From: Psammoneis japonica
Taxonomy: Eukaryota
DNA: 20,000 nucleotides
Assembly (NCBI GenBank): GCA_008632985.1
Contig: QPGO01000273.1
Location: 59,200-79,199, forward strand
Reading direction: 5' to 3'
Shown: in pieces, positions 1-20,000 of the stretch
Numbering within the stretch: position 1 is the first letter of the stretch
How the letters are laid out: each line of letters opens with the position of its first letter
The notes under the pieces: generated by a model
What the model was told of the DNA's origin: nothing
Database searches by the model: none
The model's input: only the letters and a program-made list of their open reading frames with translations
Position numbers and translations under genes: made by a program

Positions 1-348
1 CAACCTTGGGTTGAGCTGCAACCTGGGTTGAGCCTCACCGTGAGGCAGGTTGATGGGTGTCAGGGAGTGCTGTGCGAGGATTTTTCCCCTTCTTCTCTGC
101 ATGATGATGCAAGATTTCTCCATTGCTCAGCTTGTGTTGGCAATTGTTTGTGCCATTGTTGTTTCGTCATGCACCTGCTGTGCAACAGGGTTGTGGCCAA
201 TGTGCTGAACGCCGGTTTCCGGCAGTTGTCGGACTCATTCATGCGGGCGGTGCTGGTGTCCGCACGTTGAAGTTGAAGCAGGGCTACAACCTTCGCCCAT
301 GTAGAAATCTGCGCATTCGTCGTACTGGCACTTTTGAAAATTCTGCAT
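1..348 (-). pseudogene. Possible eroded gene of unknown function, divergent from the monooxygenase (5' part only in window)
   Basis: Minus-strand ATG at 348 is preceded by CAACACAAACAAC, an A/C-rich leader. The frame reads MQNFQKCQYDECADFYMGEGCSPASTSTCGHQHRPHE*VRQLPETGVQ...NTS*AMEKSCIIMQRRRGKILAQ... with two TGA stops (plus-strand 235-237 and 127-129), compatible with CGA->TGA. No homolog recognised. Confidence 0.3.
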
Positions 349-483
349 GTTGTTTGTGTTGATTGATTGAGTGATGGGTGACGGGTCGTGTCAGCAGTGA
401 CACAAGACACAACATCATCATGTTCTCCAAGGGAGGCCATGACATGCACAACTGAAAACCGTCAAAAGATTCTTTGATCGAAG

Positions 484-576
484 ATGATCCTTCCAGGACC
501 TTTACGTCTCCTTGCTTTGTCTGCCGCTGTGGAGGTGGCTAAGGCCGCTTCCCTTGTCGACCCATCTTCGCCATCT
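484..576 (+). CDS. 5' segment (signal peptide, 31 codons) of the DOMON/copper monooxygenase gene, cut off by the TIR element
   Basis: ATG at 484 gives MILPGPLRLLALSAAVEVAKAASLVDPSSPS, which looks like a signal peptide. Removing 577-3465 plus one ATCT copy joins it in frame to 3470 (SEPYSRWLDAF...GGMPGADI), giving a 569-aa reading frame. Confidence 0.85.
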
Positions 577-600
577 TCATCGTGGAACCCCGCAAATGCG
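577..600 (+). repeat. Left terminal inverted repeat of the TIR element
   Basis: 21 bp perfect plus 2 of the next 3 bp matching the reverse complement of 3442-3465. Confidence 0.92.
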
Positions 601-1517
601 GCAATTTTTTCACATTCGTGGCCGGTTTAAAGGAAAAGGGAAAAAAGGAGGGGATTCCGACAGTTGAACACACACACAATTTGACCATGCAACCAGGGCC
701 AGAGTTGCACTGGCTTCTTTTGGTCCAGGGTGGTTGCTGCAGGTGCAAAGAGTGGGGCACATTGCAGCTGCAGGAGGGCAACAATGTGACTCTGAGTGTG
801 TGCTGCCAAGCTGAGAAGCCCAGCTTGGTTGTGAGCCAAGCCCTGCCAGGCCTGCTGCCCTGGCTCCACAGCTGCTCCTCCCAGTGTGTGCATCAATTGT
901 TGAAGGAGCACCACATTGACTCAAAGGCTGTGTTTTGGGTGGAACAGAGAGGGAAAGAATTGTTGTCCTCTTGACTGGTGCTTGCTTCAGACCCCGCATC
1001 ATGAGCACAAGCTCCTCTTGAGAAATGAGTGAGAGACACTTCACACAGTCATTTTTGGTGCCTCTCTTTGGCTGCCCACTTGGCATTGCCAACAAACTCT
1101 TGAACCCAACCTCACTCACAATTTCTTCACCCTTCAACCACAAAAGCAGGCTCAACTTTTTGTTGGCTTTTTTGTGGCCAGGGATCACTGTTGCAGGCAC
1201 AAATGGTGGGCACATGCCATGTGGCTCTGCTTGGCAACAATGTGATGCCAAGCAAGCATGTGCCACCCACCAAGGAGCCAAGCAGCCCAGCTCAGCTTTG
1301 AATGGAGCTCCAGGACAGCAGCCAGCTCTTGGTGCTCCCAGCATGGCTTGCTTGCTCAAGCTGTGCTGCATTCACCCCACAATGCTCTGTGTTGTGGTGG
1401 CTTGTTGCAAGCCATGAGGAGTCTGCAGTTGGCCAGGGGCCCATTTTGTGAAGGCCACACATGTTGTGTGAGGGGCCAGGTGCAGAGATCTGCAACAACA
1501 GCTTGTGGCTGTTGGCA

Positions 1518-1805
1518 CCAAGTTGGCATTTGATTGGGAGTCAGTGCTGAGGGGCTGTGAAGTGGCTGTGCTGGGGTCAGGAGCCCAGCCAGCTCACACT
1601 CTCTTGTTGTCACAAATTGCTGTCACAGCTGTCTTTGCATTGCAACCAGCCAGGTGCAGTTGGTCCCAAGCTGGCACTTGATTTGGAGTGACTGCCAAGG
1701 AACTGTGAAGTGTGGGGTTGGGCAGTCCAGCCAGCTCACACTCTTTGCTGACAGCAGAAAGTGCTGTCACACCTGTCTTTGCATTGTGGTGCCAGCCAGG
1801 CACAC
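1518..1805 (+). repeat. Diverged tandem duplication (~148-bp period) inside the element
   Basis: CCAAGTTGGCATTTGATTGGGAGT...CCAGCCAGCTCACACTCT...TGCTGTCACAGCTGTCTTTGCATTG from 1518 recurs as CCAAGCTGGCACTTGATTTGGAGT...CCAGCCAGCTCACACTCT...TGCTGTCACACCTGTCTTTGCATTG from 1666. Confidence 0.85.
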
Positions 1806-2630
1806 ATGGCCAGAGCAGCCTTGGCACATCCTGCTGACAAAACTGGCAAAACAGCAGCTCTTGTGGTTGGGCCAGCATGCAGGCAGTCTGGGCACACCCC
1901 TGGGAAGTCAAACAGGAAGGAGGGCTCAGCATTGCCGCCAGTGCCAGAAACATGCTCAGCAGCTTGTCTTGAGAGAGATTCGAGCCCACACAGCCCCGAG
2001 CTGGGTGTCTTGGCTGGCAGGTTGGAAAGCATTCTTGAGCACAGTCTGGTGTGTGGGTGGCACTGTCACCAAGAGAGCTGCTCTGCAGAGGAAGAGGGAA
2101 ACAGGCAACAGCATTTTGCAAGAACTTTTTTTTTTCAATGGTTGGGTGGGATGGGGCAGCATCTGGACTTTGACGGAGCATTTGGCGGACAAAGCTTGAG
2201 CACAGAGAGCTGTCCACTCAAGCTCCACAAGTGGCACATTCCAAAGGTGACACCACACATGGGCCATTTGTTCATGCATCAACATGCATCAAGCTGCAAG
2301 TCTCACAAAAAACCACCACCAACCTTTCAACCAACCACCATGGAGGAGAGAACAGGGCAAGAGGTTCGAAACAAGAGTGATTCGTTGACTCTCTTCTTGT
2401 TTCATGCATTCAAGAGCTTCTTGTCCTTCTTGAACATTTGTTGTGCATTGTTGTCTCTTTTAATTCAAGTGCAAAGAGGAATCACTTTTCTTGTTTCTTT
2501 CTCTTGAGGGGTTGTTGGTTGTTGAGTGATGCAATTTTTGTTGTCACATTTTTGGAAATGTTGGCAAACCCGATCACTGGCTTGATTGTCAACCCATTCA
2601 CCATTTTAAGTCTCCATGGCATAAAATGCC

Positions 2631-3197
2631 ATAAGCCCAGAGCCCTCAATTGTTTCATCAAACGCAGTGCTTTGCACACGTCCAACATCAACTCGACTCA
2701 GTTGAAATCCCAATTTGTGGGCGATGAAAAATCACGAATGTCAAACAAATGGCTACTTTCGACACCAACATCCCCGAGTTCAATCCAAATGTGACGGTAT
2801 GCCTTACAGCTTATGACCATGACACATACAAGCATGCTTTATTGTTGTCATCGCGTACTCGTATTGAAAATGCCGATAGATCAAAGTTTACGAAAAGGAT
2901 GGAATACAAATTCATTTGTGTATTCATTAGTGGCATTGGAATAATGACATTAAGGGCAGAAGGGATCTAAAATCCTTATTCATCATTGACATTTCTGTAT
3001 TGCTCAGAATTTGAATTCTGACCACTGCCGTTAAGCATTTAGCTTTCTTTGTGTCGAAGTGTAAATGACACTTAACGATTTGCACTAATCATATAGCTGT
3101 CTCTGTGTCGAAGTGGAAATGACACTTAACGTTTTACACTATTCATTTAGCTTACTTTGACTCGAAGTCAAATGTCGAGTTTGGGTTATGGGCTTAT
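2631..3197. mobile_element. Candidate nested MITE (~567 bp)
   Basis: Imperfect inverted ends: ATAAGCCCAGAGCCC (2631-2645) vs the reverse complement of 3183-3197, ATAAGCCCATAACCC. A 2-bp AT or TA duplication is possible. The interior is AT-richer and non-coding with subterminal tandem repeats, and its composition differs from the flanks. Confidence 0.5.
3036..3177 (+). repeat. 54-bp tandem repeat, ~2.6 copies
   Basis: Units start at 3036, 3090 and 3144: CATTTAGCTTTCTTTGTGTCGAAGTGTAAATGACACTTAACG... / CATATAGCTGTCTCTGTGTCGAAGTGGAAATGACACTTAACG... / CATTTAGCTTACTTTGACTCGAAGTCAAATG. Confidence 0.85.
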
Positions 3198-3441
3198 CGT
3201 TATTCAGCCACGATCATGAAGTCTTTGCCGCAAATGCGCGGGGACCCTCCTGTAGAGGTCTACGCTCATTTTTGTATGTGGCATTGAAACATGTAGCCTA
3301 CATACGCAAAACTGGTACAGTTTCTACGAAAAAATTTCGAAAAAACGCCTAGTTCGCGAGATAGCTCTGGTACAAAACCTACGCAAATAGTCCCCATACA
3401 TGCACGTACAACTCTACGCATTTCCGGGTTACAGGTCCCCG

Positions 3442-3465
3442 CGTATTTGCGGGGTTCCACGATGA
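3442..3465 (-). repeat. Right terminal inverted repeat of the TIR element
   Basis: CGTATTTGCGGGGTTCCACGATGA followed by the TSD ATCT. Confidence 0.92.
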
Positions 3466-3469
3466 ATCT

Positions 3470-5086
3470 AGTGAGCCGTACTCGCGATGGCTTGATGCAT
3501 TTGGTTCAGACTACACCCATTCGACGTTTGTTGGCAACGGCAATAACGTTGCCGTCCACTGGCGAATCGAAAACGATATCCTTAACCTTGCAGCTGCGGC
3601 GGGAGCCAGCGGATGGATTGGCTTTGGCATTGCAGAGGCAGGTGGAATGCCCGGTGCTGACATCGCTGTGTATGAGGCGCTTGCTGATACGCTTGGGGAC
3701 TACCACGCCCTTACGTTCGGAAGGCCAGAGCTCGATAAATGTCAGGATGATTGGGAACTGATTAGATCAACCGCAGAGGACTCTTTCATTGCCTTTCAGG
3801 CCACCAGAGCCGCATCAACTGGCGACCCACAAGATCGGGATCTGTTTGATGATTCGGACCTGTCTCTTCCTGCCACTCCAATCATTGCAGCATGGGGAGA
3901 TGAGGATGAGCTCTCGTTCCATGGACCGAACCGGACCCGAGGATTTGCTCGATTTTATGGCCCGGAAGGTCTACAGGCGGGGGATGTTTCGAATTTGGAG
4001 GCTGAGAGCGACGGAAGCTTCATAGTCACGGCTCAAAACTTCACTATCCCCTTGGAAGAGACGACTTACCACGAGTTTTGTATCAACGCGACGGACTTCG
4101 AAAATGCACCTAATTTGACCGAAGCTGTCCACATTATTGGTGTTGATTTGGAAAGTTCCGCTGACGTGAATGGAGTTGACACTTCCAAGTATGTCCATCA
4201 CTTTGCGCTATTCGGTCGAAGCTCTACTTGCGACGATCAATTTACTATACCTGTCTTCTTCTACGGATGGGGCCCCGGCCAACCGCCATTTATCCTTCCA
4301 AGTGACGTTGGTCTTCCCCTCGGCGGCCAGAATGGCTTCCAGAGTTTGGGTCTCGAGATTCACTACGATAACGTCGACAAAGATGAAAATATTGTCGACA
4401 GCACCGGCGTCAGGTTGTACTACTCGAACGAGAAACGTGAGAACGAGGTGAATGCCATGATTGTTGGTGACACGTTTACTAGATTGAGGCCTCAGAGCGT
4501 TGGTTCGGGAAAAACCCAGCACACGTTTGACTGTCCATCCAGCTGTTCGCAGTCGAACCTACCGGGGCCCGTCACTATCTTCTCCGAGGCGATGCACACC
4601 CACGAGACTGCGACCAGGACGGTTAATCAAATAGTTCGGGATGGAGTGGTAGTACACGAGGCAGTTGTTGATTTCTGGGACTTTCGTCGAGCCGGAATCA
4701 AGCATGTTCAACAGGAACGCTACGAACTCCAGCCCGGAGATGTCTTCCGAACCACGTGCTACTACGAAAATAGCGACAACAGCACTGTGTTTGGCTTGGG
4801 TACTCAAGAAGAAATGTGTCAGGCACTTCTGTTCTACTATCCTGCCATTTCCCAATCTCACGGGTTTTGTGGCCCTGGACTAACTGAATTTCTTGGAGAT
4901 GAATTATGCGAGGCCTCGTACATGGGCACGGTGCAAGCCGAGGACGACTTTGGGCGTGCTTTTGGTTCACCGCAGGAGGAAGAGTGCTCAACCTCGCCCC
5001 CGTCTACGGCCACTAGAGGAGCTGCGTCACATGTTGCTGCTGCCTCACTGCTTCTGTCCTTCGCTGTTTTCATTTCTACCGCTTAA
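3470..5086 (+). CDS. DOMON domain + copper type II ascorbate-dependent monooxygenase (DBH/MOXD1-like), main coding segment; hydrophobic C-tail suggests a GPI or membrane anchor
   Basis: DOMON signature GWIGFGIAEAGGMPGADI. CuH-site motifs YVHHFALF and LEIHYDN, CuM-site motifs MHTH and QEEMC, plus YGWGPG and DSTGVRLYY. Ends with a Ser/Thr spacer and hydrophobic tail AAASLLLSFAVFISTA. The frame is open from 3470, 59 codons upstream of the supplied ORF start at 3647. Confidence 0.93.
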   Translation, partial: SEPYSRWLDAFGSDYTHSTFVGNGNNVAVHWRIENDILNLAAAAGASGWIGFGIAEAGGMPGADIAVYEALADTLGDYHALTFGRPELDKCQDDWELIRSTAEDSFIAFQATRAASTGDPQDRDLFDDSDLSLPATPIIAAWGDEDELSFHGPNRTRGFARFYGPEGLQAGDVSNLEAESDGSFIVTAQNFTIPLEETTYHEFCINATDFENAPNLTEAVHIIGVDLESSADVNGVDTSKYVHHFALFGRSSTCDDQFTIPVFFYGWGPGQPPFILPSDVGLPLGGQNGFQSLGLEIHYDNVDKDENIVDSTGVRLYYSNEKRENEVNAMIVGDTFTRLRPQSVGSGKTQHTFDCPSSCSQSNLPGPVTIFSEAMHTHETATRTVNQIVRDGVVVHEAVVDFWDFRRAGIKHVQQERYELQPGDVFRTTCYYENSDNSTVFGLGTQEEMCQALLFYYPAISQSHGFCGPGLTEFLGDELCEASYMGTVQAEDDFGRAFGSPQEEECSTSPPSTATRGAASHVAAASLLLSFAVFISTA

Positions 5087-5779
5087 GGATCGACGTCCGT
5101 CAGGATAGATGATGTTGATGCTTTTTTATTCTCTTCATGACATGCTCGTATTCATATCGCAAGATACAAGACCGTATTTGTGGTGTACCTCAGGAGGACG
5201 AGTGTCGCCTTCGTGTCATTTCCTTGCTCTGTGTGTGCCTGATTCTTCAAAACAAAACAAAATTGTGCGTGGGGACGCCGAATCCTCAATCCGTTGATGT
5301 GTAAAAGCAACCCTCTTTGCATGACACTACATAATAAAAAACATCGCAACAGAATAGTGCCGATTCAAAACAATGACAATGCTCGTATCTATGCTAGCTA
5401 ATGAAGGCAAAGTAGAGTAGACTCAACGCTACTCATACACAGAGAAAAATGCGAAAAAAGTCATTCACGGACAACGCACCGAGCTCGAAAACTGAACAGA
5501 ATGCCTCCACCCGCGGATTCTCCTGTGAAAGCACCAACTGTGATGATATACTATTGTGCAACGAGATAAAATCTCAGTGCTCTACATTATTTGTTAAACG
5601 CTGAAAGAAGAAAACCGATTATTGTTCTCCAGCACGACTCTCCCAACAACCCTAATGTCCCCCCCCCGGTACAACTTGGCACTCACGATGCGTCGTCCGG
5701 CAACCGACTTCTACACCAACAGAATGCTTCTCCGACCACAGCCTCGTCACTCCCCGCCCCGCCACACCGATCTTTCAAA

Positions 5780-8340
5780 CTCAAAATTGCGCCAAAGAAA
5801 GGCGTTGACGTTTGTGTGTGCCTTGCGATCCATCACCACCTTGCGAGAAATGTGACGCTTCATCTTTCAAAATCCATGCAATGCCACAGTTTTCACGTGC
5901 ACCACTGCAATCCTTGCTCATCGCCCTCCAGTCTCCACATTGCAGTCATGGCATGATTTAAAGCCACAACATCTGCACACAGTGGCTCCATTCACAGATG
6001 TCGCGCCGCATTTTGAGCGGCACAGCGGCGCAATGTCTGCACAAGGGTTCCTCACAACCTTTGCAATCAAAATTTCCCGCACACTTTCCGCAGTGGGTGG
6101 TGTGACAAAATCAACATCCTTGCAGACATTTGCCCCTGCCCTCCCAACAGAATGCCCCACCCATGCTGTTGTCTCAATCCATGGTGCAAGCGCCCCTTTG
6201 GTTTGTCCTTTGACAACTGCCGTTGGCTGTCAGCGCACAATGGTCAGCAGTGTGGCAAACACCCAGACTGTGATGATCGCAACTCTCATGAAGCAATGGG
6301 TTCTGACAAAGCTCCTCCCACACAGCATGTGATTGTGAATCATGAGGCATTGGCAACATCAAAAGATGTGCAGGTGCCCTTCTGGCTCCCCCACCTTTGC
6401 CTGAGGAGCAGCTGGTTTTGGCCAGAGTGCAAAGATGGGTGGTGTGCTGACTTTTGCAGATAAAATCAGGTTCAGTTTTGCACCCAAACCTGCAATCAAA
6501 GCAGAAGCACCACCACTTGGTCTGTTTGGGAATGACAACAATGCAGTGGATGCATTCCCGTCAAGAGGTGACAACACGCTGACAGCCTGTCCAGTGCAGC
6601 GGGCGAGCTTCATTTTGATGACGTGCCTGGAAAATGGCTTGCCAGCATTGGTGGCTCCTGATGATTCTGGAGATGATGATGATGACACACCAGGTCCTCT
6701 TGTTCCTCAAGTGGCAACAACAGCATGGACAAAATTGGTTCAAGCAATCATTGCAAGCACGAGATGCTTTCTCAATGTTTGTCAGACAGTGAATCGCATG
6801 ACTGCAACTCTGAAAATCCTGTGCTGTGCAGCAATTGTTTGAAGAGGCAGCCTGTCAGATTGCTCTTGGCAACTGCAACTCATCTTGACACACAACTTTT
6901 CCTGTTTTAAAGTCAACACATCTTTGGAGCATCCAATCAAATTCGGCATTGTCTGCATGACAAGAGTGAGCATGCAGTGGCAGGTTTCCTGGTTGCACTC
7001 CTTTGCCTGCCTTGCATGATGATGAGAGATTCAGTTGTCAGTGGTGCACACATCATTGCACATTGTTCAATGGCTTTTTGTGTCACATTGTGCGCACATC
7101 CAAAAGAAAACATTTTCCACAATCGCAAACCCCATGTCAAGAACAAAAAAAGAGCCACGACACAATGGCAAACATTGGGCCATGAGGATGCCCTGTGAAA
7201 AAGAAATCAAAGAGACAATGATGCTGCTGGAGCCACCACACTTGCGCCTGTCTGGGACATCACCGCTGTGTGATGTCTCATCCATTTGATCAACTTGTGA
7301 CAGGTTTTTCACCCAACACTGGCAAAATCTGCTTTGCATGTTGTTGTCCAATTTTTGAAATGACTGAGTCAGCAATCAACCACTGTTGCAGCACCACTCA
7401 ACTCTCCACATTTTGATTGGTGTGCTCCTTTGGTTTGTTGATGTGGAGTTAAAGAAAGGCGTTTGAAACTGCGCCAACGATGCCATGGTTGAGTTCACTT
7501 TTGCATCAAAAAGCATGTGCGGCAGCCACTCACACATCCCTTTGTTTGTCCAGACCTTCAAGATTGAACTTTGCATGCAAAATGTTTCTGACAGCAACTT
7601 TTACATTGGTTGTTTTCAAGTTGGACAATGCACAAAACATGTTGGTGTTGCGCGTGAAAAATGGGCAAACGCACACACCCAAGTCTGGTTGTCAGCAAGG
7701 CAAAAATGTCAAGGAACAATGGCTCAAGAATTTTTGTTGAATTGGTGCAGAAGGATCGCCTTGGATCTGGAAATGCTCTGCCTTGCTGGCAAAGCATGCA
7801 CAGCTGCCAAGCTTGAGACCAGCGCGACACTGCGCCCATGCCTTTGAACAATCAAGGACCCTTTTTGCAGAACAAAGTCTCTTTTGAGCTTGGCGACAAC
7901 ATTGCTTTTGTTTGACACTGTGTGTTTGCAGTGTGTCGAAGCATCTGGAAAAGGCAGGAAATGTGAGAGACCCGGGGTGGAGCCATTGAAGAGAGGACAC
8001 TTCAGCTTTTGAAAATTTGGTGGCGACACTTTGGAAAAAAGCGTGCTGCAAGTCAATTGTGAAAGGAAGGAGTTTGCACTCAACAAGTCAATCATGAAAG
8101 GGGGGGAGTCCCACAAAGTTTCCTGCACTGCGGCATGTCACACTTCTTGTCCTGGGCTGTGAGGACTGTGGTTTCCCTGCTGGAAGCCCTCAATGAATTT
8201 CAGTCTTGCAGCATGACATGTGCCTGCTGACGCCACCACACAACTCATGTGAACAGATGATTCGCTCCAAAGAGCCAGACAAAAGAAGGTTGGTGGCAGG
8301 AAAATGCTGTGCAATTTAAGAGCCCTGTTGTCATGTTGTC
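5780..8340. other. TpA-depleted (partly CpG-depleted) degenerate tract, probably decayed TE or pseudogene sequence
   Basis: Only a handful of TA dinucleotides in ~2.5 kb, mostly TTAA. ORFs essentially lack Tyr and are Cys/His/Gln-rich. A fragment LPALVAPDDSGDDDDDTP (~6640-6690) suggests former coding sequence. Boundaries are approximate and no element family was recognised. Confidence 0.6.
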
Positions 8341-8424
8341 AAATTATTTTGTAAAAAAAACGTACGACCACACCACGCACGGCACACAGCATTCAATGAT
8401 GTGCTGCACCGGGATTCCAAAGAC

Positions 8425-8430
8425 AAAAAA
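8425..8430 (-). terminator. Pol III T6 terminator after the tRNA pair
   Basis: A6 on the plus strand (T6 on minus) lies just 3' of the truncated tRNA-Asn copy. Confidence 0.55.
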
Positions 8431-8431
8431 G

Positions 8432-8504
8432 CTCTCCGTGCTGGGATCGAACCAGCGGCCTCAAGATAACTGTAGCAGTTAAACGGTTATAACAGTCTCG
8501 CGCT
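8432..8504 (-). pseudogene. 5'-truncated, intron-containing tRNA-Asn(GTT) copy
   Basis: Minus strand: AGCG CGAGA CT GTT A [22-nt intron TAACCGTTTAACTGCTACAGTT, plus-strand 8468-8489] A TCTTG AGGCC GCTGG TTCGATC CCAGC ACGGAGA G. The intron is at the canonical 37/38 position. The 5' acceptor strand and D-arm are absent. Confidence 0.8.
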
Positions 8505-8533
8505 GAAGAGATTGCAAGGTGCAAAATAGATAA

Positions 8534-8607
8534 CTCTCCGTGCAGGGATCGAACCTGCGACCTCAAGATTAACAGTCTTGCGCATCTACCAGCTGAGCTA
8601 ACGGAGA
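8534..8607 (-). tRNA. tRNA-Asn (GTT), intronless
   Basis: TCTCCGT TA GCTC AGCTGGTA GATGC G CAAGA CTGTTAA TCTTG AGGTC GCAGG TTCGATC CCTGC ACGGAGA G. It has a 7-bp acceptor stem, perfect anticodon and T stems, and A/B boxes, with one extra T in the 3' D-stem strand. Confidence 0.92.
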
Positions 8608-10565
8608 CGAATGTTTTGTTGGAGGCGGGGAGCAATTTCACCAATGTGATCACTGTTGGTGTTCCACGAAAAAGTGCCAAGTAAGTTGCACATCACACAC
8701 AGACAAACGTAAAAAAAAATCATTTTTTGATCACAACAAACGTCACACCACTCTCACTGCCTCTCGGTGTTATTTCTCATCAACCAAGCCACACCCAGAG
8801 ACATGCAGGGGCATTTTAGAAATGTCTTTGAATGCTTGACAAGGCCACAGTGCGAAAGAGATGCGTTCCAGGTCCAGGTGGGACCTCGCACTGCTGAACT
8901 GTGACATCGACAGTTTTTTGAATCGCGTCGTATGTGGCGCACGTACATTTCTACGTGATTTTGGCAAAATTTTGCATCATTGCAGTGCAATTGTCAGGCG
9001 ATCCATTCAACAACTTTTGACATTTTTTTCTTCTATGCTGGGCTGCGCGCAAAACTGTCTCACCTGCCACCTCTTGCTCCAAACCCAAAGCTGGTCAAAT
9101 CAAAAATTTGAGCACACCTTGCACACCAAAATCGACCATTTTCTTTCGATCTGTCGGTGGACCTGATGCAAAAAACGATCAGAAAGTCGATTTTTTGATG
9201 CAGAGGGTTTTCAAAAACTCAAAATAGACCCACTCTGCTCATTTTCGAGAATGGGTCCGCCGACAGTTCATTTTCTTGTTGCCCCCAGTGCAAACATGCG
9301 CAACTGTCAACCAAAAATTCCATGCATTTGGTTTTGAATGAGCACTTCCATCTTGTTCACTTTTGCCCGCAGCAACCACACTGTCTCCTGCTGACAGTGT
9401 CTCTGAATGCACGAAATGACCCCGTTGTGTGCACCCCAAATGTCACACACAAATTTGTGTGCACGTCATTTCATGTGAATGCCTGCACAAAATGCACATC
9501 CCTTCAACTTTGAACGTTTCTAGTTCACTCTAAACATCTGCCAGAGACCACAGCAAAGGCACCATTGGAAAGAGCAGATTCTCAGCTTTCCATCGATGTG
9601 CCGTTTGTTCCCCACGTGCAATTTGCGCTGGAGATGCAGTCGTGGCAGTCCAACCGGTTTTATGTCCAGCACAGCGCACGCCATTCTCGAGTGTCTTAAG
9701 AATGGCGCAGGGCAGGCACATTGTCCAAAACTTTGAGTGCGAACAGAGACATGTGCACTGCAAACTTGGCCGTTCATTTCATGTCGAAGACAAATGCATC
9801 CATCAACCAGACTGTGAACTGCAGAGCTCGCACGTAGAATTCTGCGGGGCAAATGTCACAAAAAGTCCCACCTGGGACTGGAACCCGTCAAGAGTGAATG
9901 AAGTGCGCACTGCCAATGAGAGTTGGTGAAAATTGACGAACAAAACATTGTTTTGTGTTCCTGTGAAATCGAGAAAGGTTGTTTGTTTGCACAGATTGCC
10001 TCTTTCCCCAAACGCTGCCCGGCTCTGCCGAACTGAGCTGACAGAGAGTTGACTGTTGTTGCTTGTTCAGCATTGTTTTGACATTCAGTTGCTGATTTGT
10101 TCAAGTTTGGCAACCAAGCCAAACATTTTTCCAGAAGGCAGAATTTGCGCTCGCACACAACACGCCGGCGCACATTCGCGTGAAACCTTCAGGACAACAA
10201 CTGACATGCGATTGCACACAGATTGACTTCGGACAATCATGCTGGACTTTTTGCAATTGTTGGTGCTTTCTTTGGGTGGCTGAAATGAGGTCCAGGGTCC
10301 AGGGCCACCTCTCACAGGTGTCATCTGTCTGCTCATCATCAAGGGGTCAGGGAGTGCGGCTGCTTTCTTGTTTGTTGGCGGGCACGTGGCGCGTGGCACA
10401 AAAATGGTCTTGAGACAGCTGGAGAAGCAAGTTGTGCCAGTGCTGTGTGTGAAAAAAACAAGTTGCTGCTTTGTTTTGCAATCTGCCCACCAGAGCTTTG
10501 CCCATTGCCCCCTCCCCACCAGCAGCAGCAGAGATGCGCTGCTTGCTGGAAAGCCAGTGGCCAAC

Positions 10566-10786
10566 CCGCTCTCTGACGGCAGCTGCCAGGAGCACTTTGA
10601 GCACCTGGGGAGTGACCTTGCATGTCTCTGACCCACAAATTGATGCCTGCCACACTGGTGCTTTGAAGAAAAATGACACATGGAGACTTCTGCACCTGGG
10701 AAGCCACTCTCAGATGGAAGCCTCCAGAAAAGCCCTTTGAGTGCCTGGGCAGCAATGGTGCACATCTTTGACCCACAATGTGATGG
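10566..10786 (+). pseudogene. Fossil protein-coding internal repeat (two ~46-codon-period units) of an unknown protein
   Basis: Unit 1 PLSDGS..FEHLGSDLACL*PTN*C and unit 2 PLSDGS..FECLGSNGAHL*PTM*W. Many differences are synonymous third-position changes (TCT/TCA, GAC/GAT, GGC/GGA, GGG/GGC, AGT/AGC, CTC/CTT), so this frame was under coding constraint. Unit 2 contains a frameshift. Confidence 0.7.
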
Positions 10787-12086
10787 CCGTTCTTGCACTG
10801 CTGCTTAAAAATGTTGGAAGTTGAGGTGCTGTCAAAGGCTTTTGTGTGATCTGGGTTGTCCAGGAGCCCTCCACAGGGCACTGAGTCTTGAAAGTTGCAG
10901 ACAGGAAACTCACCCAGGAGCACTCCTCCTCAGCAGGTTGATGCCCTGGGACATTGGCCTGGCCTGTTTCTTCCACCTGGACAGAGATTGTCCCACAATG
11001 AGCACACAGCTTTGGGCACTCAAAATGCATCCGCACATTTGTGGGCTGGGTGGGCTGGCACTGCACTCACCCTTGTGCTGGCAACAAAGAGACGTCACCT
11101 GGCCGCCAGTGACACAGCAGGGTGTGAATGTTGACAGTGCCCTGGCACCAGCTTCATTGCCATTTTGGTGCACAAGCCTGCACATTTGAAAAGCTCCATG
11201 TGAGTCACTGGAAAGTGCTGTGTTGCTGCAAGAGTGGCAAGAAGAAGCTGATTTCTTCTCGAGATGGCTCATGAACAAGGTGAAAAATGGACAGAAACTG
11301 CCTTCTGACAGAATTCAAACAATGTTGTGAAATTTTTGTCATCTCTTTCACGACCACACCACAATGGGTCAAGCCAAAACATGCCCAAACAAGATGCTGT
11401 GTGCAGGGCACCTCTTTGTGTTGTGCAGCTGTGTGAAAGAGGGGCACGTGCATGAAGCCACAGGCCTGGTGTTTTGTCTCTGCTCGTCTTCAGTCATCTG
11501 CAAGAAGTGCATGCTGGGATTTTGTGTGGAAGGCTTGCTCACCACAAATTGTGAAACCAACAACACTTTGAACTTTTTTTGTGAATCCAATGAAGAAATC
11601 TCAGTGGTGTGTTTTGTTTTGTGGGAATGACAGAAAAGAAAGTGCAGCAACAAGTCATGGCAGAGAGGAGCACCACCATTGCTTTGGGAATGCAGTCAGC
11701 ATTGCACATTGGGGTGAATGACAGAAATGAAGATGCAGGGGTGAGAAGTGTGTTGGGTGACACTGTGTTCATGGCAAACATGGGCAGTTTTTTTTACAAT
11801 GCCACAACACGCCAATCATCTCTCTCAGTGTTGAAACATTGACCCAACAATGGTTTTGTTCTCTTGACCTGTTGTTTTGTTTTTGGCTTTGTCCATTTTC
11901 CACAGAAATCATGCGGCATGGCTCAAAGCAGCACTGCATCATCATGTGGCATGACTCAAGGTGATGTGCCAGTTTTGTGCAGTGTGACTCAAGAGCTGGG
12001 GCTCTGCCCACCTCTGAACATTGAAGTGGCTGATGAGAGTGAGGCTCAGCTTGATGCTGCAAGGGCAGGAGAATGTGTTGGCACCA

Positions 12087-12106
12087 GCTGCTGCTGCTGC
12101 TGCTGC
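12087..12106. repeat. (GCT)n microsatellite
   Basis: GCTGCTGCTGCTGCTGCTGC seen directly. Confidence 0.8.
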
Positions 12107-14987
12107 CACTGTGACTCCTGGTGCTGGTGGTGCCGCTCCTGCTGCAACTTTCAGTTTCACTCATGTTTGCATTTGTGCTCTGGTCCATGCATGTGTTCTG
12201 GAGACCAAGTCTCTCTGAGTTCTTGTGTGTGCTGCTGTTGACATTGGCATGATCTTGATGCATCCTTTGCATGCCAACTGCACTCTTTTGGTGCAGAGCA
12301 CACAAAGAACTGGCAGTGCAACCCAGGTTTGTTGACATGATCAGATCTGTTGTTTAAGACATGCAACCCCTCCTGCAGACTGAGGGGCCATTCATCATGC
12401 TTGCTTGCAATGGTGGAGCTGGCCTTCAACCAGGCAAAACAGAGAGATGCTGTCAGAGCCAAAACACATTGTTGTTTTGCATTTGAAGCACACTTTTGTA
12501 AAACTGGAAGGCAGTGAATTGGCTGCCATCTGCCCAAGCCAACAGAGAATGGAGTTGGTCTTTTTGGTGAAAAAACAGGCGCCACCCATTTGGGTTGGGC
12601 AACATGAGCCACAGTGCAACCTGTTGAGACCATGTTGTTTGGCAAACATCTTGCACAGCTGTTGCAGCCAGGGTGGCTGCAGCTCAATCTCAAGTGCTTG
12701 GTTTTAGCTTTGATCATCAAAGTGCCATTGCAGGCAGAGCCAATGAGTGAAGTGGCACAAGCTTCATCAGAGAGGGGGCATTTGACTGGGAGGCAGGAGC
12801 GGCATTGGCAGCAGAGTGAGTTGGCACAGTCACAAGAGCAAAACAACAAGAGAGTTGGAGAGGTTGCAACTGAACTCAAGAGCAATGGCAGAGGCATGCT
12901 GGCAGTGGGAGGCTGAGTCTCAAGAATGATGATGGAAGTGGTGTTGTGCAGCAGGTCACAAGCAGCAGCCAATGCAGAGCAGTCAAGAGCCAGTGTTGCA
13001 GCTCCAATTTAGATGGCTTCAACAGCAAGAGTGGGTGCATTGGGGCAACAGGAGAGTCATGTTTCAAACACTTTAAATGAGAGCACTGAGTCAGCAACAT
13101 TCAACATGCAATTGTGTGCCTCAACCCAATGTGTGTGTTTGATTTCCAGCGCATTTGCTCACCAGGCTCAATGCCATGTCAGTCATCCCAGACCTCTTTG
13201 TGCTCTCAGACATGTCATCTTAGAAGGACCCTCACCCCTGAAGCTTCTTGTCTTCTTTGATTCAAGAGGCTCCTCATCTTCCTTGGTGTAAAAAATGGCT
13301 GTCTGTCATCACAGTCATTGTTCTTGTCAGCAGAGTTGTCGCTGACAGCGGTCTTGCCAGCCATTGGCTCACTTGAAGCTGCATCTGAGATGCTTGTTGC
13401 CAAGGAGGGAGATGGGTTGGTGTTGCTTGACAGGGCACTTGCAACATTGGCAGAAGGTGAGTCAGTGTTGGCAATGCCAGCAGAGGGCAAATCAAGAGCT
13501 CTTGTGGGTGGTGGGGATCAAAAGAAGAGCTGCTTGTTGGTGGAGCAAGCAGCTTGGTCATTTTTGAGGCTTTCACCTTCTTGTGCATGGGTCTTTCTGC
13601 TGCTGTTTTTTTGTTGTGTTGGCATCTTGGCAGCTGTCCAGAACTTGCAAGGAGAGCTGAAAAATGTGGTTGGCCACTTTTGGTGGAGAGCAAGGCCAGC
13701 GGCACTTTCTTTGGTTGGCTTCAGAGCACAAGAAGCAGACATGCTGGCAGCAGAATCATTGCTGTGATTTTTGGCAACAAGGAATCTGACTGTTGATGGA
13801 GGCTCCTTGGTGCTTGTGTGCTTCATCTCACTTTTTTCATGCCTCAGCATGTTGGCACAAAAAATTCAGCCAGGGTCAATGGGCTCCCATCATCTACAAG
13901 CTGAAAGCATCGAAACAGCATGCACAATGTCAAACACAGCAAAATCAATGAACAAATGAGAGAAAATGCAAAAAAGAAAAAAAAGAGAGAAATGCAGGAG
14001 TTGAACACAAGTTCTTGCCATGGTGTTGAGTCAGCATGACTGTTTGTCTGGACCCAATGTCTGCCCACTGTCCATCAACATTTTCATGCACAGCACTGCA
14101 AAGTTTTCTCTCACTGGTGATCGCATGGTGATTCTTGCAGGAAAAGTTGTCTCTGCAGAAGGCCATCAAAAGAAAGAAGTTCTGCTCTTTTTGGGTCAAT
14201 GTGGGCAGCTGAGAAGTGTGCTTTGATCCTGCATTTTCACCCCAACATCAAACAGACATTTTTTGAAACCTCATGTGGGGTTGAATTTTCTTGTTCTCAC
14301 TGCTGGATCTTTGTGCAGCTCAATGGTTGAGCAGGCATTTGATCATGCTGTGTGGCTCTGTGGTTCCTTGCAGATGTCCTGGCCCAGCTGCAAATGCAAA
14401 GAATCACAAACTCAAAAATCTGCAGGAACATGCCAACAACTTGGTTGACTTTGGAGTGGCACATGGCAGAGAGGACCTTTTCAAGAAAGAAAGCTCCTTG
14501 TGTAATTTCAGCAGCGTGCTGCTGCATTTCATTTGTGGCTGCCAGATCTCAACTGCCAGCATTTTTTGCACCACACATGAAGAGCAATCCCATCATTTGT
14601 TTGAGAGGGAGAAGAAGAAATAGAAAGCTGAGTTTTGAAATGAGTGCCCCCACCCTGCTTTTTCAAACTGACCAGCTCTGTAGACTTCCTTGGCAGCTGA
14701 CACCAATGTCTTCTCTCTTGACAACATTTTTGACATTGGTCTTAACTGAGTGCAGCCTTGCAGTGCTGCCCAGCCACCAAAGAGGTTGTCCTTGCCAGAA
14801 CCTGAAAGATCTGCCACATGCCTGGGATGTAGAAAATTGCAACATTTGAAGCTGTGGCTCTTGTCCATGTGCTTGTGAAGACACTTGCAAGACAAGGAAG
14901 AAGCATGATGAAGAGGCACACACGAAGCCCCGAAGTTGAAGCTGTTGAAGTGTGTTGAGGCTTGGAAAAGTGAGTGCACTCAACGAA

Positions 14988-15030
14988 TGTTGTTGCTGTT
15001 GTCGTTGTTGTTGTTTTGTTGTTGTTGTTG
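14988..15030. repeat. Imperfect (TGT/GTT)n microsatellite
   Basis: TGTTGTTGCTGTTGTCGTTGTTGTTGTTTTGTTGTTGTTGTTG seen directly. Confidence 0.8.
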
Positions 15031-15409
15031 CATTTGGGCTTGGACAAGGGCTTTCTTGAGCTCTTCTGTGTTGCCAAAAAATGAATGCAAAGAAATGGTG
15101 GCTTGCAGAGTGCTGTGTCAAGAACATCATGTGAGGCACTGTCCAATCCATCCATGGCACTCCAATGGTGGGCAATTGGAGGTTCATGGGCAGGAGGTGC
15201 CAGGAGACTTTCTGTGTGCATGAACATCACAACAATTGCTCATTGATGGCAAGGCACATCACACTGATGATCAAAAATGCATTGAGGAGGAGGCAGCTGT
15301 GATTTCAATGATGCCTTTCATGATGTGGATTGTGGAAGGATCCAGCCTCAATTTCCCATGTTCTCAAAGTCATCCATTCACTGTCAGTCACGCTGTGCTC
15401 TCCAAAATG

Positions 15410-15424
15410 CCCCCCCCCCCCCCC
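15410..15424. repeat. C15 homopolymer
   Basis: 15 consecutive C near the right edge of the degenerate tract. Confidence 0.85.
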
Positions 15425-15966
15425 TTGCTCTTTGTGATGAAGATTCTGTCAAACTTTTGCATCAGCAAATGTACCCAAAATGCAACCAATTGGACCCTCG
15501 TTCCTGTCTCAAACAAATTTGCTGTGGTTTGTCCTGTCTTTGGTGGGTTCCTGAAAGTGATGACAAGGACGACAATGGAACCTGGTTCATAGATTTGCCT
15601 TTGGAACGGATGGATGAAGACGTGATTTCTGACTGAGGAATAAGAATGGAGCAATGCTTTCGAACTTAGCTCCTCACAACGGCCTTGTCGTTAAGGAAAC
15701 TATTTGCAGTGCCCTGAAAGCAACTCGTAAGAATTGGCGCCTCCACAGTGAAAAGAGGATGTCAATCTCTCTCTAACACTTGAATGCGAAAAGCGCAGTT
15801 GCAAAACAATTCGATTCAACTGCAAATGATTGTGAGAGGTTGTACGATCTTGATTCTACTATAGTTTGACTTTGACAATTGACCTGTAAAACAAATTTTA
15901 CTCTCTAGAGAGCGAGCTATTCAGTGCGGTAGAAATAGCATGTGCTCGCACAATGCGCTCCGCTAT

Positions 15967-17484
15967 TTATTTCCGATTGTTGTACTTTTTCTTTTTGAAC
16001 TTTCCACCTCGTTGATTCGGCAACGCACCACCTCGGCCACCGGATCCTCCGGCATAGCCTCGCTTGATTTCTCGTTTGACTGCACTTTCCAATCCATCTT
16101 CATCATCGCTCTGTCGTCTCTTTTTGTGACGACGTCCACCACTCCCCTTGGAGGCTGCCAATTGTTCCTTGAGTTCACGAGTCGCCAGCCGTTGCGCCTC
16201 ACAAACGCGTTCCAGCAAAATCAACACGGTTTCTTCATCCAGCTCGTACTCGGGTAGCTTTTTCCCCAACAATCCCTCCAAACGCTGGTACACTTCCACA
16301 TCGTATTGAGTCACCATGGCAATGGCCTTTCCAGCTCGTCCCGCTCGAGCCGTCCGTCCGACTCGATGGATATAATCCTTACCGTGTCCTGGTAAATCAA
16401 AATTGATTACAACATCGACGCTGGGGATATCCAATCCTCTCGCCGCCACGTCGGTACAAATCAAGATATCCCGTCCTCCGCTTTTGAACTTGTGCAAGGC
16501 ACCCAACCGCTTGGGTTGACTCATTTGACCGTGCAAACAAATGGCGGGGAATCCCAAATTTCGAAGCATCAGGGCGAGTCGCTGCACGTTATTGCATGTC
16601 TCGCCAAAGACGAGAATCGATTGTCCGGCGTGTTCATTAATGAGATAGGTCAAGTAACAATCCTTGTATTTGGAAGGACACAAAATGTACGATTGAATCA
16701 GTTTGGAAGGAGTGGAGAATTTGGTGCTGACTTCAATCTTGACTGGATCGACAAGCGACGCTCGTTGTAACTTTTGTACCTTGGAAGTCATGGTGGCACT
16801 AAACAACATGGTCCGACGTCCCTGGGACGCATCGGGAATAACGTTTAGGATTTCATTCAATTCTTCTTCAAAGTCCAATCCAAGCATGCGATCGGCTTCA
16901 TCCATGACGAGGTAACGAATCTTTTGCAAATGAAATCCCTTTGTGTTGGTCAAGTGATCGACGAGCCGCCCCGGCGTGGCAACGACAATGTGAGGATTCC
17001 GTGCCAATGCAATGGATTGGCTGGCCGAATCGACACCACCCACAATACAAACCGACGTGGCACCCATGCTCTGCCCCAATGCTTGAACGACCTCGAGAAT
17101 CTGAAAGGCTAATTCACGCGTCGGGGTTAGAATGACTGCAAAGACGGCGCCCCGCACGGGATTTTGCAACAATTCTTGTAGAATGGGAATGCAAAAGGCA
17201 CCTGTCTTTCCCGATCCCGTCTCGGCCAATCCAATAATGTCTCTGCCCTGTAATGCGTGAGGGAGTGTTTCTTGTTGAATTTTGGAACAGTACTTCCAAC
17301 CCGCAAGCGACGTTGCTTCACAAAGAGTTTCACAAACTCCCACCGAAGCAAAGGTTGCTTTTGACATGATTCCATCTTCTTCTTCATCATCATCCGAAGA
17401 TGATGACGATGACGCTGCTTGTTCTTCTTCTTCATCCGAAGATGATGGCGACGCTTGTTCGTTCTCGTCTTGCTTCTTGGACAT
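15967..17484 (-). CDS. RRP3: ATP-dependent rRNA DEAD-box helicase RRP3/DDX47, 505 aa, intronless
   Basis: GRDIIGLAETGSGKTGAF, LTPTRELAFQI, ATPGRLVDHLTNTKGF, DEADRML, SAT, HGQMSQPKRLGAL, TDVAARGLDIP and YIHRVGRTARAGRAG motifs, typical of the DDX47/Rrp3 subfamily. Acidic N-terminus and basic C-terminus. Start chosen at ATG 17484 (MSKKQDE). Confidence 0.95.
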   Translation of the reverse strand: MSKKQDENEQASPSSSDEEEEQAASSSSSSDDDEEEDGIMSKATFASVGVCETLCEATSLAGWKYCSKIQQETLPHALQGRDIIGLAETGSGKTGAFCIPILQELLQNPVRGAVFAVILTPTRELAFQILEVVQALGQSMGATSVCIVGGVDSASQSIALARNPHIVVATPGRLVDHLTNTKGFHLQKIRYLVMDEADRMLGLDFEEELNEILNVIPDASQGRRTMLFSATMTSKVQKLQRASLVDPVKIEVSTKFSTPSKLIQSYILCPSKYKDCYLTYLINEHAGQSILVFGETCNNVQRLALMLRNLGFPAICLHGQMSQPKRLGALHKFKSGGRDILICTDVAARGLDIPSVDVVINFDLPGHGKDYIHRVGRTARAGRAGKAIAMVTQYDVEVYQRLEGLLGKKLPEYELDEETVLILLERVCEAQRLATRELKEQLAASKGSGGRRHKKRRQSDDEDGLESAVKREIKRGYAGGSGGRGGALPNQRGGKFKKKKYNNRK

Positions 17485-17820
17485 GGTTTCAATCGAACAA
17501 GAACAAAAAAAAGTGAGCAGGAAATCAAAATGTGGGATGAAAAATCGGTGGCGCAAGCGCGAAGCGGGAAATGTGTGAACACAAAGTTCCTGATTCCATC
17601 AAACTGTTTCCGTGCGTCAGTCGGTCGTTCCCTCCCGTCGTCTGACAGCACGCTCGCCCAAACGAAGAACGAAAGTTTTTTCTGAGACTGTGGCCATGGC
17701 GGTCGGAACGCCGTCGCTTAAATCCCTGTCTGCTCTCGCGTTCTTATAAAGTGCCTGGTGTACAGTGTAACAAGAGACAGCACAGTGGAGCAAGACACAA
17801 GCCGTGCTGTGAAGGATTGC
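17485..17820. promoter_or_regulatory. Short divergent (bidirectional) promoter region between RRP3 and the pseudouridine synthase
   Basis: 336 bp separate the head-to-head start codons; a CTTATAAA TATA-like motif lies at ~17743-17750. Confidence 0.5.
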
Positions 17821-19425: not shown

Positions 19426-19542
19426 CAAAGATGATGAACTATATTGCATTAAAGTTGCCACGGGACTACCTCGCCCCAACTGGGATCCACGTCATCAAAT
19501 TGCGTGGAGGTTTGCGGTGACTAGCGCTCACGCCATAGTACT

Positions 19543-19938
19543 TCAATTCCTCACAGCACCCATTCTCAGCAATCGTCGACCCCGACGTGCCTCTGCCAAA
19601 AAGTATCGGGCGGGGTAGCGTCTCCTGTTGATGCTTCGTTGGCACGAGTACGCACTCGCGGACAGACGTAACACGAACCAGAAAATAAATATGCGAACGA
19701 GTGCAAAAATACGATCGACAATGGGACTGCTTAACCAAATCAACAAAGCCTTGTGGTGGGGAGGGAACAAGGTGCTTAGCATCATCCTTGTTGTCATGCG
19801 AACGTTCAACCCCCTAATACCTGAATCGTTGCTACAGATAGAATCACAAATTGCTTTGAAGATCAGTGATGTGATCAATTTCCGCGTTCTTTTGGATCTT
19901 CCCCTGCATATTGCCACGAGTTTAGCCATTTGGTCCAT
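19543..19938 (-). CDS. Hypothetical ORF (131 aa; frame open to window end), function unknown
   Basis: ATG-started ORF in normal-composition DNA with one hydrophobic stretch (IFALVRIFIFWFVL); no recognisable motif. Confidence 0.2.
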   Translation of the reverse strand: MDQMAKLVAICRGRSKRTRKLITSLIFKAICDSICSNDSGIRGLNVRMTTRMMLSTLFPPHHKALLIWLSSPIVDRIFALVRIFIFWFVLRLSASAYSCQRSINRRRYPARYFLAEARRGRRLLRMGAVRN

Positions 19939-20000
19939 TGGTAAAGAAAAGGGACAACAAGAGGAGGAAGATACTAGAGTTTTCTTTCGATTGGGTATAA

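Follow-up and report, generated by a model that had tools for sequence, protein, structure and literature searches.

The closest described counterpart to the DNA analysed here comes from the chlorarachniophyte Bigelowiella natans. In B. natans mutation-accumulation lines, an integrated giant virus and a virophage acquired 231 mutations, and 230 of these were A-to-G or T-to-C changes, all of them at TpA, according to the main text of a preprint (Mettrop et al., bioRxiv 10.64898/2026.01.13.699255), which gives the rate as about 6e-7 per site per generation. Its authors proposed an ADAT2-like deaminase as candidate, and the enzyme is not identified in that main text (10.64898/2026.01.13.699255). 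The same main text contains none of the terms "context", "flanking", "trinucleotide", "tetranucleotide", "TTAA" and "CpG", and its supplements may hold information on flanks (10.64898/2026.01.13.699255). A full-text literature search for TpA-specific hypermutation returned only this 2026 preprint. Here we analyse a stretch of 20,000 nucleotides (in the following the window) that has been deposited under the name Psammoneis japonica (assembly GCA_008632985.1, contig QPGO01000273.1, positions 59,200 to 79,199 of the forward strand), and in which three tracts have lost nearly all of their TpA and much of their CpG. The few TA steps that are left in these tracts stand in a particular sequence context, to which an earlier note on this DNA had already pointed.

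The window shares with B. natans, as described in the preprint's main text, that A:T to G:C changes are found only at TpA and give TpG or CpA depending on the strand, that hypermutated regions adjoin normal genes and in the long term are low in TpA and high in CpA plus TpG, and that a single-copy region can be a target. The characteristics of Bigelowiella-type hypermutation that are present in the window are the substitution of TpA by TpG or CpA and the regional character of the process, which leaves the neighbouring genes unaffected. Concerning the type of target, tract 1 is part of a multi-copy element with terminal inverted repeats (TIRs), positions 9040-10005 are part of a very high-copy element, and the rest is single-copy DNA without a Pfam match. 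There are also differences. The host of the published case is a chlorarachniophyte whereas the window comes from a diatom-like stramenopile, and the window is saturated, with a ratio of observed to expected (o/e) TA of 0.04 compared with a Rho of 0.45 given in the main text for the region of the nucleocytoplasmic large DNA virus (NCLDV). In addition, CpG is also lost in the window, on which the main text of the preprint is silent, the tracts do not contain any recognisable viral or transposon domain, and the flank rule described below is absent from that main text. Judged from its sequence, the window shows this dinucleotide chemistry in another lineage, at saturation, combined with a loss of CpG, for the most part in single-copy DNA, and with a readable flank rule.

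Two other processes leave comparable scars. Repeat-induced point mutation (RIP) of fungi is also a regional transition hypermutation at the DNA level that acts on both strands, ruins sequences, and leaves a dinucleotide signature. However, it is the mirror image of what is found here because it turns CpA and TpG into TpA so that TpA rises, whereas TpA falls in the window, and it needs duplicated DNA, whereas tracts 2 and 3 are mostly single-copy. RIP was rejected on these grounds, the drop in TpA in the tracts being about 25-fold. In the main text of the B. natans preprint, RIP is described as C-to-T (10.64898/2026.01.13.699255). Methylation-dependent decay of CpG would fit the CG o/e of 0.14 in the tract cores, the gain of TG and CA, and the enrichment of the remaining CG steps in GC-rich flanks (see below), but it cannot remove TpA, and the loss of TA extends past the loss of CG.

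Tracts depleted in TpA and CpG

The three tracts (limits in Table 1) comprise 11,183 bp and were compared with 8,258 bp of DNA outside. Within the tracts the o/e ratios are 0.04 for TA, 0.23 for CG, 1.77 for TG, and 1.83 for CA, compared with 0.51, 1.04, 1.27, and 1.14, respectively, outside. Bins of 250 bp contain between zero and three TA steps where 11 to 21 are expected, and the longest run without any TA extends over 1,833 bp. An independent compositional baseline, and nothing else, was provided by a metagenome scan with the DEAD-box protein of the window, which yielded 80 loci, the ten most diatom-like of which (L001-L010, 86.5 kb) do not contain any TA-free stretch longer than 202 bp. 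A similar scan with the closest relative of the DOMON protein did not result in any match. The process is regional: the genes beside the tracts (3470-5086, 15967-17556, and 17758-19425) have kept a TA o/e of about 0.5 and a CG o/e of about 1. At the borders at 5730-6250, 9040-10250, and 1-560 the loss of TA outreaches the loss of CG by several hundred bases, with a TA o/e of 0.06 and a CG o/e of 0.69 in the former two and similar values in the latter. Thus, the borders look like a front at which TA is lost first and CG next. In most intervals of 400 bp, TG and CA occur about equally often; both strands were thus mutated in the same places, and an editing confined to one strand was rejected.

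Copy number was estimated from the depth of run X1 contigs on the window at a likeness of at least 80%; neither X2 nor X3 provided any coverage of the tracts. The single-copy depth of about 60 applies to 3440-8790 and 9963-20000, compared with about 4,300-6,600 over 668-3335 and 23,000-52,000 over 8672-10005. At this likeness, tract 2 as well as the larger part of tract 3 occur as a single copy. The same contigs were used for comparing copies. Among the 40 differences listed, of 407 in total, 18 are between TA or CG on one side and TG or CA on the other, and seven of the 40 are between TA and TG or CA. Three of the listed differences are found in single-copy DNA, namely TA-to-TG at 504 and CG-to-CA at 6008 and 6030. 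The first is synonymous in a leucine codon within the signal-peptide exon of the DOMON gene, and the mutation process therefore seems to spill into coding DNA beside the tract. The other two are located in a border zone where TA is already lost and CG still retained. These three differences suggest recent activity, the direction of change being assumed and run X1 possibly being the source of the assembly. Tandem duplicates within the tracts (1499-1646 versus 1647-1790, and 10560-10700 versus 10700-10840) differ at three and five double sites, respectively, that are TG in one copy and CA in the other, as expected if an ancestral TA or CG had been resolved independently. Further sites at which the window differs from its repeat family, and a single mismatch between the two TIRs of an element, are given in Table 1. 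Based on these sequence comparisons the tracts are the result of mutation and not of an original composition.

The tracts contain many overlapping open reading frames (ORFs) of 90-280 residues on both strands, none of which has a Pfam match. These ORFs exist because TAA and TAG are nearly absent, and gene callers would likely report spurious proteins here. None of the 63 tract ORFs of at least 90 residues reached the threshold of a Pfam family, nor did any of the 18 tract frames that were read through with an X for each stop. One match, to PKD_channel with an E-value of 0.0036, is below the family's cut-off.

Flank context of the surviving TA steps

The tracts have kept 31 TA steps, 12 of which are TTAA, 11 TTAB or VTAA, and eight VTAB. 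The earlier note had listed 12 TTAA and eight "half-protected" sites between 620 and 14840, a range that includes 30 of the 31 survivors, and all of these are present within one or two bases of the places given. Ten further survivors had not been named, three of which also fit TTAN or NTAA. The share of TTAA among all TA steps is 12/31 in the tracts compared with 16/289 outside (Fisher P 8e-7). Expected shares were derived from base composition (0.065), a first-order Markov model that includes the frequency of T-runs and A-runs (0.106), transition precursors (0.077), all single-substitution precursors (0.069), and the contexts outside the tracts (0.055), and the observed share deviates from these five nulls with binomial P values of 4e-5 to 4e-8. 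In the CG-poor core alone, eight of 22 TA steps are TTAA (P 6e-5). TTAN or NTAA account for 23/31 in the tracts versus 114/289 outside (P 2e-4). The claim that most of the survivors are TTAA, TTAN, or NTAA is therefore confirmed, and neither base composition nor run frequency predicts the share of TTAA. By itself, the half-protected class is only weakly enriched over VTAB (11 versus 98 compared with 8 versus 175, P 0.083). The density of TTAA drops about two-fold, from 1.94 per kb outside to 1.07 per kb in the tracts, compared with an about 20-fold drop of the other TA tetramers. Because TTAA is not in excess in absolute terms, this fits survival and not creation.

The tetramer is too narrow a frame for the fingerprint. 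Each TA was split into two half-sites, one per strand, resulting in 62 half-sites in the tracts and 576 outside. The strongest signal is a T at -2 (42/62 versus 165/576, P 2e-9), followed by a T at -1 (35/62 versus 129/576, P 6e-8), and that at -3 is weak (25/62 versus 150/576, P 0.024). At both -1 and -2, A is underrepresented, so that the signal is not a general richness in A and T but an oriented one: T lies in the 5' flank, A in the 3' flank. If the Ts at -2 and -1 on both strands are summed to a flank score between 0 and 4, the numbers of TA steps with scores 0 to 4 are 0, 5, 10, 12, and 4 in the tracts and 81, 132, 61, 13, and 0 outside (Mann-Whitney P 2e-12). With the non-tract DNA as baseline, survival at the scores 0, 1, 2, and 3 is 0, 0.03, 0.12, and 0.68, respectively (it is undefined at score 4); with the ten diatom-like loci it is 0, 0.02, 0.09, 0.38, and 1.3 for scores 0 to 4. 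Survival thus increases to about 100% at the highest score. All 31 survivors have at least one T at the scored positions. The four TTTAAA sites appear to be fully spared, and the non-palindromic contexts TGTAAA and TAGA are protected, too. Thus, the context fingerprint that had been noted is real, but its scope of a single base to either side was too narrow since the strongest position is -2.

The survivors cannot reveal which neighbour protects because the 5' flank of one strand is the 3' flank of the other. If a T two bases 5' of the adenine protects, as the earlier note had proposed (model A), TTAB should become TCAB, and if the protection comes from an A located 3' of the adenine (model B), TTAB should become TTGB. 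In the tracts, the fraction TTGB/(TTGB+TCAB) is 0.636 (block-bootstrap confidence interval (CI) 0.608-0.675). With all non-tract DNA, the non-coding non-tract DNA, or the ten diatom-like loci as stand-ins for the ancestral sequence, model A predicts 0.45-0.52, equal rates predict 0.54-0.58, and model B predicts 0.63. When 26 eukaryotic contig chunks were taken as ancestors, the observed fraction was not reached in any of the 26 under model A or under equal rates, but in two of them under model B. Fitting the products by the +1 base resulted in relative rates of about 0 for A (upper bound 0.06-0.2), about 0 for G (upper bound 0.3-0.5), 1.2-2.2 for C, and 1 for T, which is 12-14 log-likelihood units better than equal rates. 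The asymmetry is also found where CG has been retained (0.633-0.647 in 1.7 kb) and is thus not simply a product bias of CpG loss. At the positions ±2 it amounts to 0.546 versus a baseline of 0.46. All four informative direct comparisons (504, 3388, 9101, and 9121) obey the rule of the 3' neighbour, and both comparisons that are informative for model A (504 and 9121) contradict it. The earlier note's view that adenines in 5'-TTA are poorly attacked is therefore not supported.

In a Poisson model in which each strand is mutated independently and the exposure is set by the +1 base, the exposures are 0.37 for A, 1.32 for G, 1.76 for C, and 2.82 for T, and the model is clearly better than a context-free one (likelihood-ratio chi2 39.9, P 1e-8). 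Survival of TA is 0.26 for YTAR, 0.06 for mixed classes, and 0.009 for RTAY (chi2 27.5, P 1e-6). The model fits 10.7 TTAA where 12 are observed, and a protection of the palindrome is therefore not needed. TTAA is just the sequence where neither of the two adenines is readily attacked. The independent-strand fit supports the earlier note in its claim of a context fingerprint. Altogether its interpretation is partly supported, the part well supported being that of a context-specific activity.

The surviving CG steps behave differently. In the tract cores (700-2600, 6250-8335, and 10250-15560), CG survival is 0.28 with a 5' G (or 3' C) and 0.10-0.13 with other bases, and among tetramers it is 0.52 for GCGC and 0.06-0.08 for TCGA, ACGT, and CCGG. 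CG is thus protected by GC-rich flanks, which is opposite to TA and argues against simple breathing of the duplex as common cause.

Proposed mechanism and rival explanations

It is fairly probable that a regional hypermutation of TpA with context-dependent slow substrates explains the tracts. They would be the end product of a process at the DNA level that changes TpA to TpG or CpA (A:T to G:C) on both strands, with a slower loss of CpG to TpG or CpA alongside, and the remaining TA steps would be its slow substrates. The two base pairs of a TA step would be attacked independently, at a rate set by their outer neighbours. With adenine as target, 5'-T-A-Y would be preferred, G at +1 would be slower, A at +1 about 5-8 times slower, and A at +2 would protect; with thymine as target the same preference would read 5'-RTA. 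Survival of a TA would require T-A-A/R-A on both strands, that is, a location within T(T)TA(A)A, so that TTAA and above all TTTAAA would dominate the survivors. What has been observed are the dinucleotide signature, the context dependence, the independent-strand fit, the direction of the products, and the change of single copies after insertion. As for the chemistry, we would give about an even chance to adenine deamination by a TadA/ADAT2-like enzyme, as opposed to a thymine-directed route, by analogy to the proposal for B. natans and to the target loop of TadA. The natural target loop of TadA reads U-A-C-G, and TadA and ADAT2-3 have in common with the process in the window the obligatory T (U) 5' of the edited adenine and a preference for a pyrimidine at +1 as in this anticodon loop. 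The -1 T and +1 pyrimidine preferences in the window fit a TadA/ADAT2-like agent; a difference is that no such gene is encoded in the window, and its activity on DNA would have to be presumed. ADAR, in contrast, favours G at +1 and acts on RNA. ADAR-type editing through an RNA copy was rejected because G at +1 is slow here, the DNA is single-copy, and both strands are mutated in the same places.

Several points weigh against this proposal. The sample consists of 31 survivors from one window of 20 kb. Both survival and product direction were derived with substitutes for the ancestral composition, namely non-tract DNA and contigs of other diatom-like origin. For G at +1, survival and products give different rates, about half that of T and near zero, respectively. 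Part of the asymmetry could be mimicked if the products of CpG loss were themselves biased by context, and the control in CG-retaining DNA that argues against this is small (1.7 kb). At least one TTAA (10805) may stem from an indel, and 9101 shows that TTAA can be converted. In the comparisons of copies with the window, the direction from TA to TG or CA is assumed, and 40 of the 407 differences are listed.

The interpretation of the earlier note, an adenine deaminase preferring 5'-VTA that spares adenines preceded by TT and hence TTAA on both strands, predicts the very same survivors, including 12 TTAA of 31 and flanks that are T-rich on the 5' and A-rich on the 3' side. However, it is very improbable given that it misses the observed product fraction in all 26 chunks and that the adenine following TT is the converted one at 504 and 9121. 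The "VTA preference" would instead be literally correct if thymine were attacked, for example by an oxidation of the TET/JBP type to hydroxymethyl- or formyluracil mispairing with G, with a preference for 5'-R-T-A and blocked by a 5' T; if adenine is the target, the strand assignment has to be reversed. In sequence, A-to-G on one strand is T-to-C on the other and all context results fit a thymine-directed route equally well. Hydroxymethyluracil is enriched at TpA in dinoflagellates, and formyluracil mispairs with G. Still, no thymine-modifying enzyme or modified base was seen in the window, and the fast T and C at +1 resemble the U-A-C loop of TadA. In addition, adenine deamination, put forward in the main text of the preprint (10.64898/2026.01.13.699255), is so far the sole published explanation of TpA hypermutation. 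We therefore regard the thymine route as unlikely.

The TA steps could also be new, having appeared after a context-blind purge either by C-to-T changes in TC (TCA to TTA, TGA to TAA) or by deletions joining a T-run to an A-run. Creation from TC would result in a TTAA share of about 36% based on the counts of TCAA and TTGA, which is near the observed 12/23, TC and GA are slightly low in the tracts (o/e 0.89 and 0.94 versus 1.10 and 1.15 outside), and the TTAA at 10805 is located at a 5-base indel between tandem copies. However, uniform single-substitution precursors give a TTAA share of only 7%, and creation does not explain why T is found at -2 even in half-sites with G or C at -1 (19 of 27), why the products of the lost TA steps are asymmetric, and why the densities of TTAA and TTTAAA are at or below the ancestral ones. 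This scenario seems improbable. Even less can be said for TTAA being special as a whole word, either as the target-site duplication of a transposon or as a palindrome shielded by a protein or by methylation. Elements of the piggyBac type duplicate TTAA, and four of the 12 TTAA are found at tract edges (628, 2607, 5959, and 8317). A piggyBac-like duplication was rejected since TIRs were not found inside any of the 66 pairs of TTAA (best match 8 of 12 bases). Furthermore, TA depletion begins 250 bp ahead of the TTAA at 5959, the one clear transposon in the window has a 4-bp ATCT duplication, independent half-sites already explain the number of TTAA, and contexts that are no palindromes are protected as well, all of which makes this explanation hardly credible.

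Genes, elements, and implications

Table 1. Location of the tracts, surviving TA steps, polymorphic sites, repeats, and genes in the window
Feature	Position	Strand	Remark
Tract 1, depleted in TA and CG	560-2615	.	left 2 kb of multi-copy TIR element 577-3465; depth ~4300-6600
Tract 2, depleted in TA, single-copy	5730-8335	.	CG near normal 5730-6250, lost from 6250; depth ~60-65
Tract 3, depleted in TA	9040-15560	.	9040-10005 very high-copy, most CG kept; 9963-15560 single-copy, CG-poor
Partly TA-depleted zone	1-559	.	5 TA; CG largely kept; contains signal-peptide exon of DOMON gene
TTAA	627-630	.	survivor, in TTTAAA
TTAA	2460-2463	.	survivor
TTAA	2606-2609	.	survivor, right edge of tract 1
TTAA	5958-5961	.	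survivor, in TTTAAA
TTAA	6907-6910	.	survivor, in TTTAAA
TTAA	7449-7452	.	survivor
TTAA	8316-8319	.	survivor, right edge of tract 2
TTAA	9696-9699	.	survivor
TTAA	10805-10808	.	may be new; sister copy of 140-bp tandem duplication has five extra bases here
TTAA	12354-12357	.	survivor
TTAA	13073-13076	.	survivor, in TTTAAA
TTAA	14742-14745	.	survivor
ATAA	6461		survivor unnamed by earlier note
ATAG	9225		survivor unnamed by earlier note
CTAG	9521		survivor unnamed by earlier note
CTAA	9531		survivor unnamed by earlier note
TTAT	9661		survivor unnamed by earlier note
GTAG	9835		survivor unnamed by earlier note
CTAC	13895		survivor unnamed by earlier note
ATAG	14621		survivor unnamed by earlier note
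GTAG	14681		survivor unnamed by earlier note
GTAG	14830		survivor unnamed by earlier note
Polymorphic TA-to-TG	503-504	+	TA in window (TTTAC), TG in single-copy run X1 contig; adenine after TT, before C
CA in window	9101-9102	+	TA in all 11 other repeat-family contigs, TTAA context; adenine with less A-rich 3' flank changed
TG in window	9120-9121	+	TA in 55% of family depth (TTAC); adenine before C converted
Left TIR, 25 nt	576-600	+	sole mismatch: TG/CA where right arm has TA
Right TIR, 25 nt	3442-3466	-	in TA-normal DNA
DOMON and copper type II monooxygenase gene	3470-5086	+	intronless-looking
tRNA-Asn gene	8534-8607	-	
DEAD-box helicase gene	15967-17556	-	intronless-looking
RluA-type pseudouridine synthase gene	17758-19425	+	intronless-looking

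The window is eukaryotic. All named homologues of its pseudouridine synthase and monooxygenase stem from diatoms or are of diatom origin (Cylindrotheca, Amphora, Seminavis, Attheya, Trieres, and a Kryptoperidinium transcriptome), and judged from these homologues the organism would be diatom-like. Identity to them does not exceed 44-53%, and the protein collection does not include the proteins of the window itself. A piece of 36 nucleotides at 8432-8467, located 102 bp from the tRNA-Asn gene, is 92% identical to the 3' half of this tRNA and is probably a truncated copy.

Two multi-copy elements overlap with the tracts. The DOMON/monooxygenase gene is split into a signal-peptide exon (484-581, with the ATG at 484) and the rest, which starts at about 3467. 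In between, the element at 577-3465, of which there are about 70-110 copies, comprises 2,889 bp and has TIRs of 25 nucleotides and a 4-bp ATCT target duplication (573-576 and 3466-3469). Excision of the element restores the DOMON reading frame, and the GT at 582 and the AG at 3470-3471 would splice in frame. Based on this arrangement, the element could behave like an introner. Its right 0.8 kb has a normal TA content and contains three tandem copies of a 54-nucleotide unit at 3032-3193 (100%, 87%, and 63% identity). In one contig of run X2, position 3228 follows immediately on the left terminal repeat, and 3228-3246 pairs with 3434-3452. The genome thus seems to contain a shorter version of the element at another place, and the long copy may consist of a short element resembling a miniature inverted-repeat transposable element (MITE) plus 2.6 kb of extra DNA, two thirds of which are free of TA. 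The second element (8860-9889) is present in very high copy number (hundreds of copies; depth of 23,000-52,000 versus about 60) and has inverted repeats of 25 nucleotides at 8860-8884 and 9865-9889. The copy in the window includes about 650 bp (9035-9692) that are missing from other copies. It is depleted in TA and has kept most of its CG.

So far, a single preprint has described the hypermutation of TpA in silent or foreign DNA, and its main text does not include anything on context beyond the dinucleotide. Flank rules have identified the activities of APOBEC and AID elsewhere, and the fingerprint found here is of the same kind. The flank rule offers a way to recognise the process in other genomes. 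Tentatively, and with more doubt than confidence, we propose that a TpA-directed hypermutation defence is also present in diatoms, where it would have become saturated, would be accompanied by CpG loss, and would extend into single-copy flanks and a coding exon. The 5'-T-A-Y rule, according to which a purine at +1 or +2, especially A, protects, might then point to an ADAT2/TadA-derived DNA adenine deaminase common to the lineages of stramenopiles, alveolates, and Rhizaria (SAR). If this is true in a diatom-like genome, the known range of the defence would be wider and its long-term end state would become visible.

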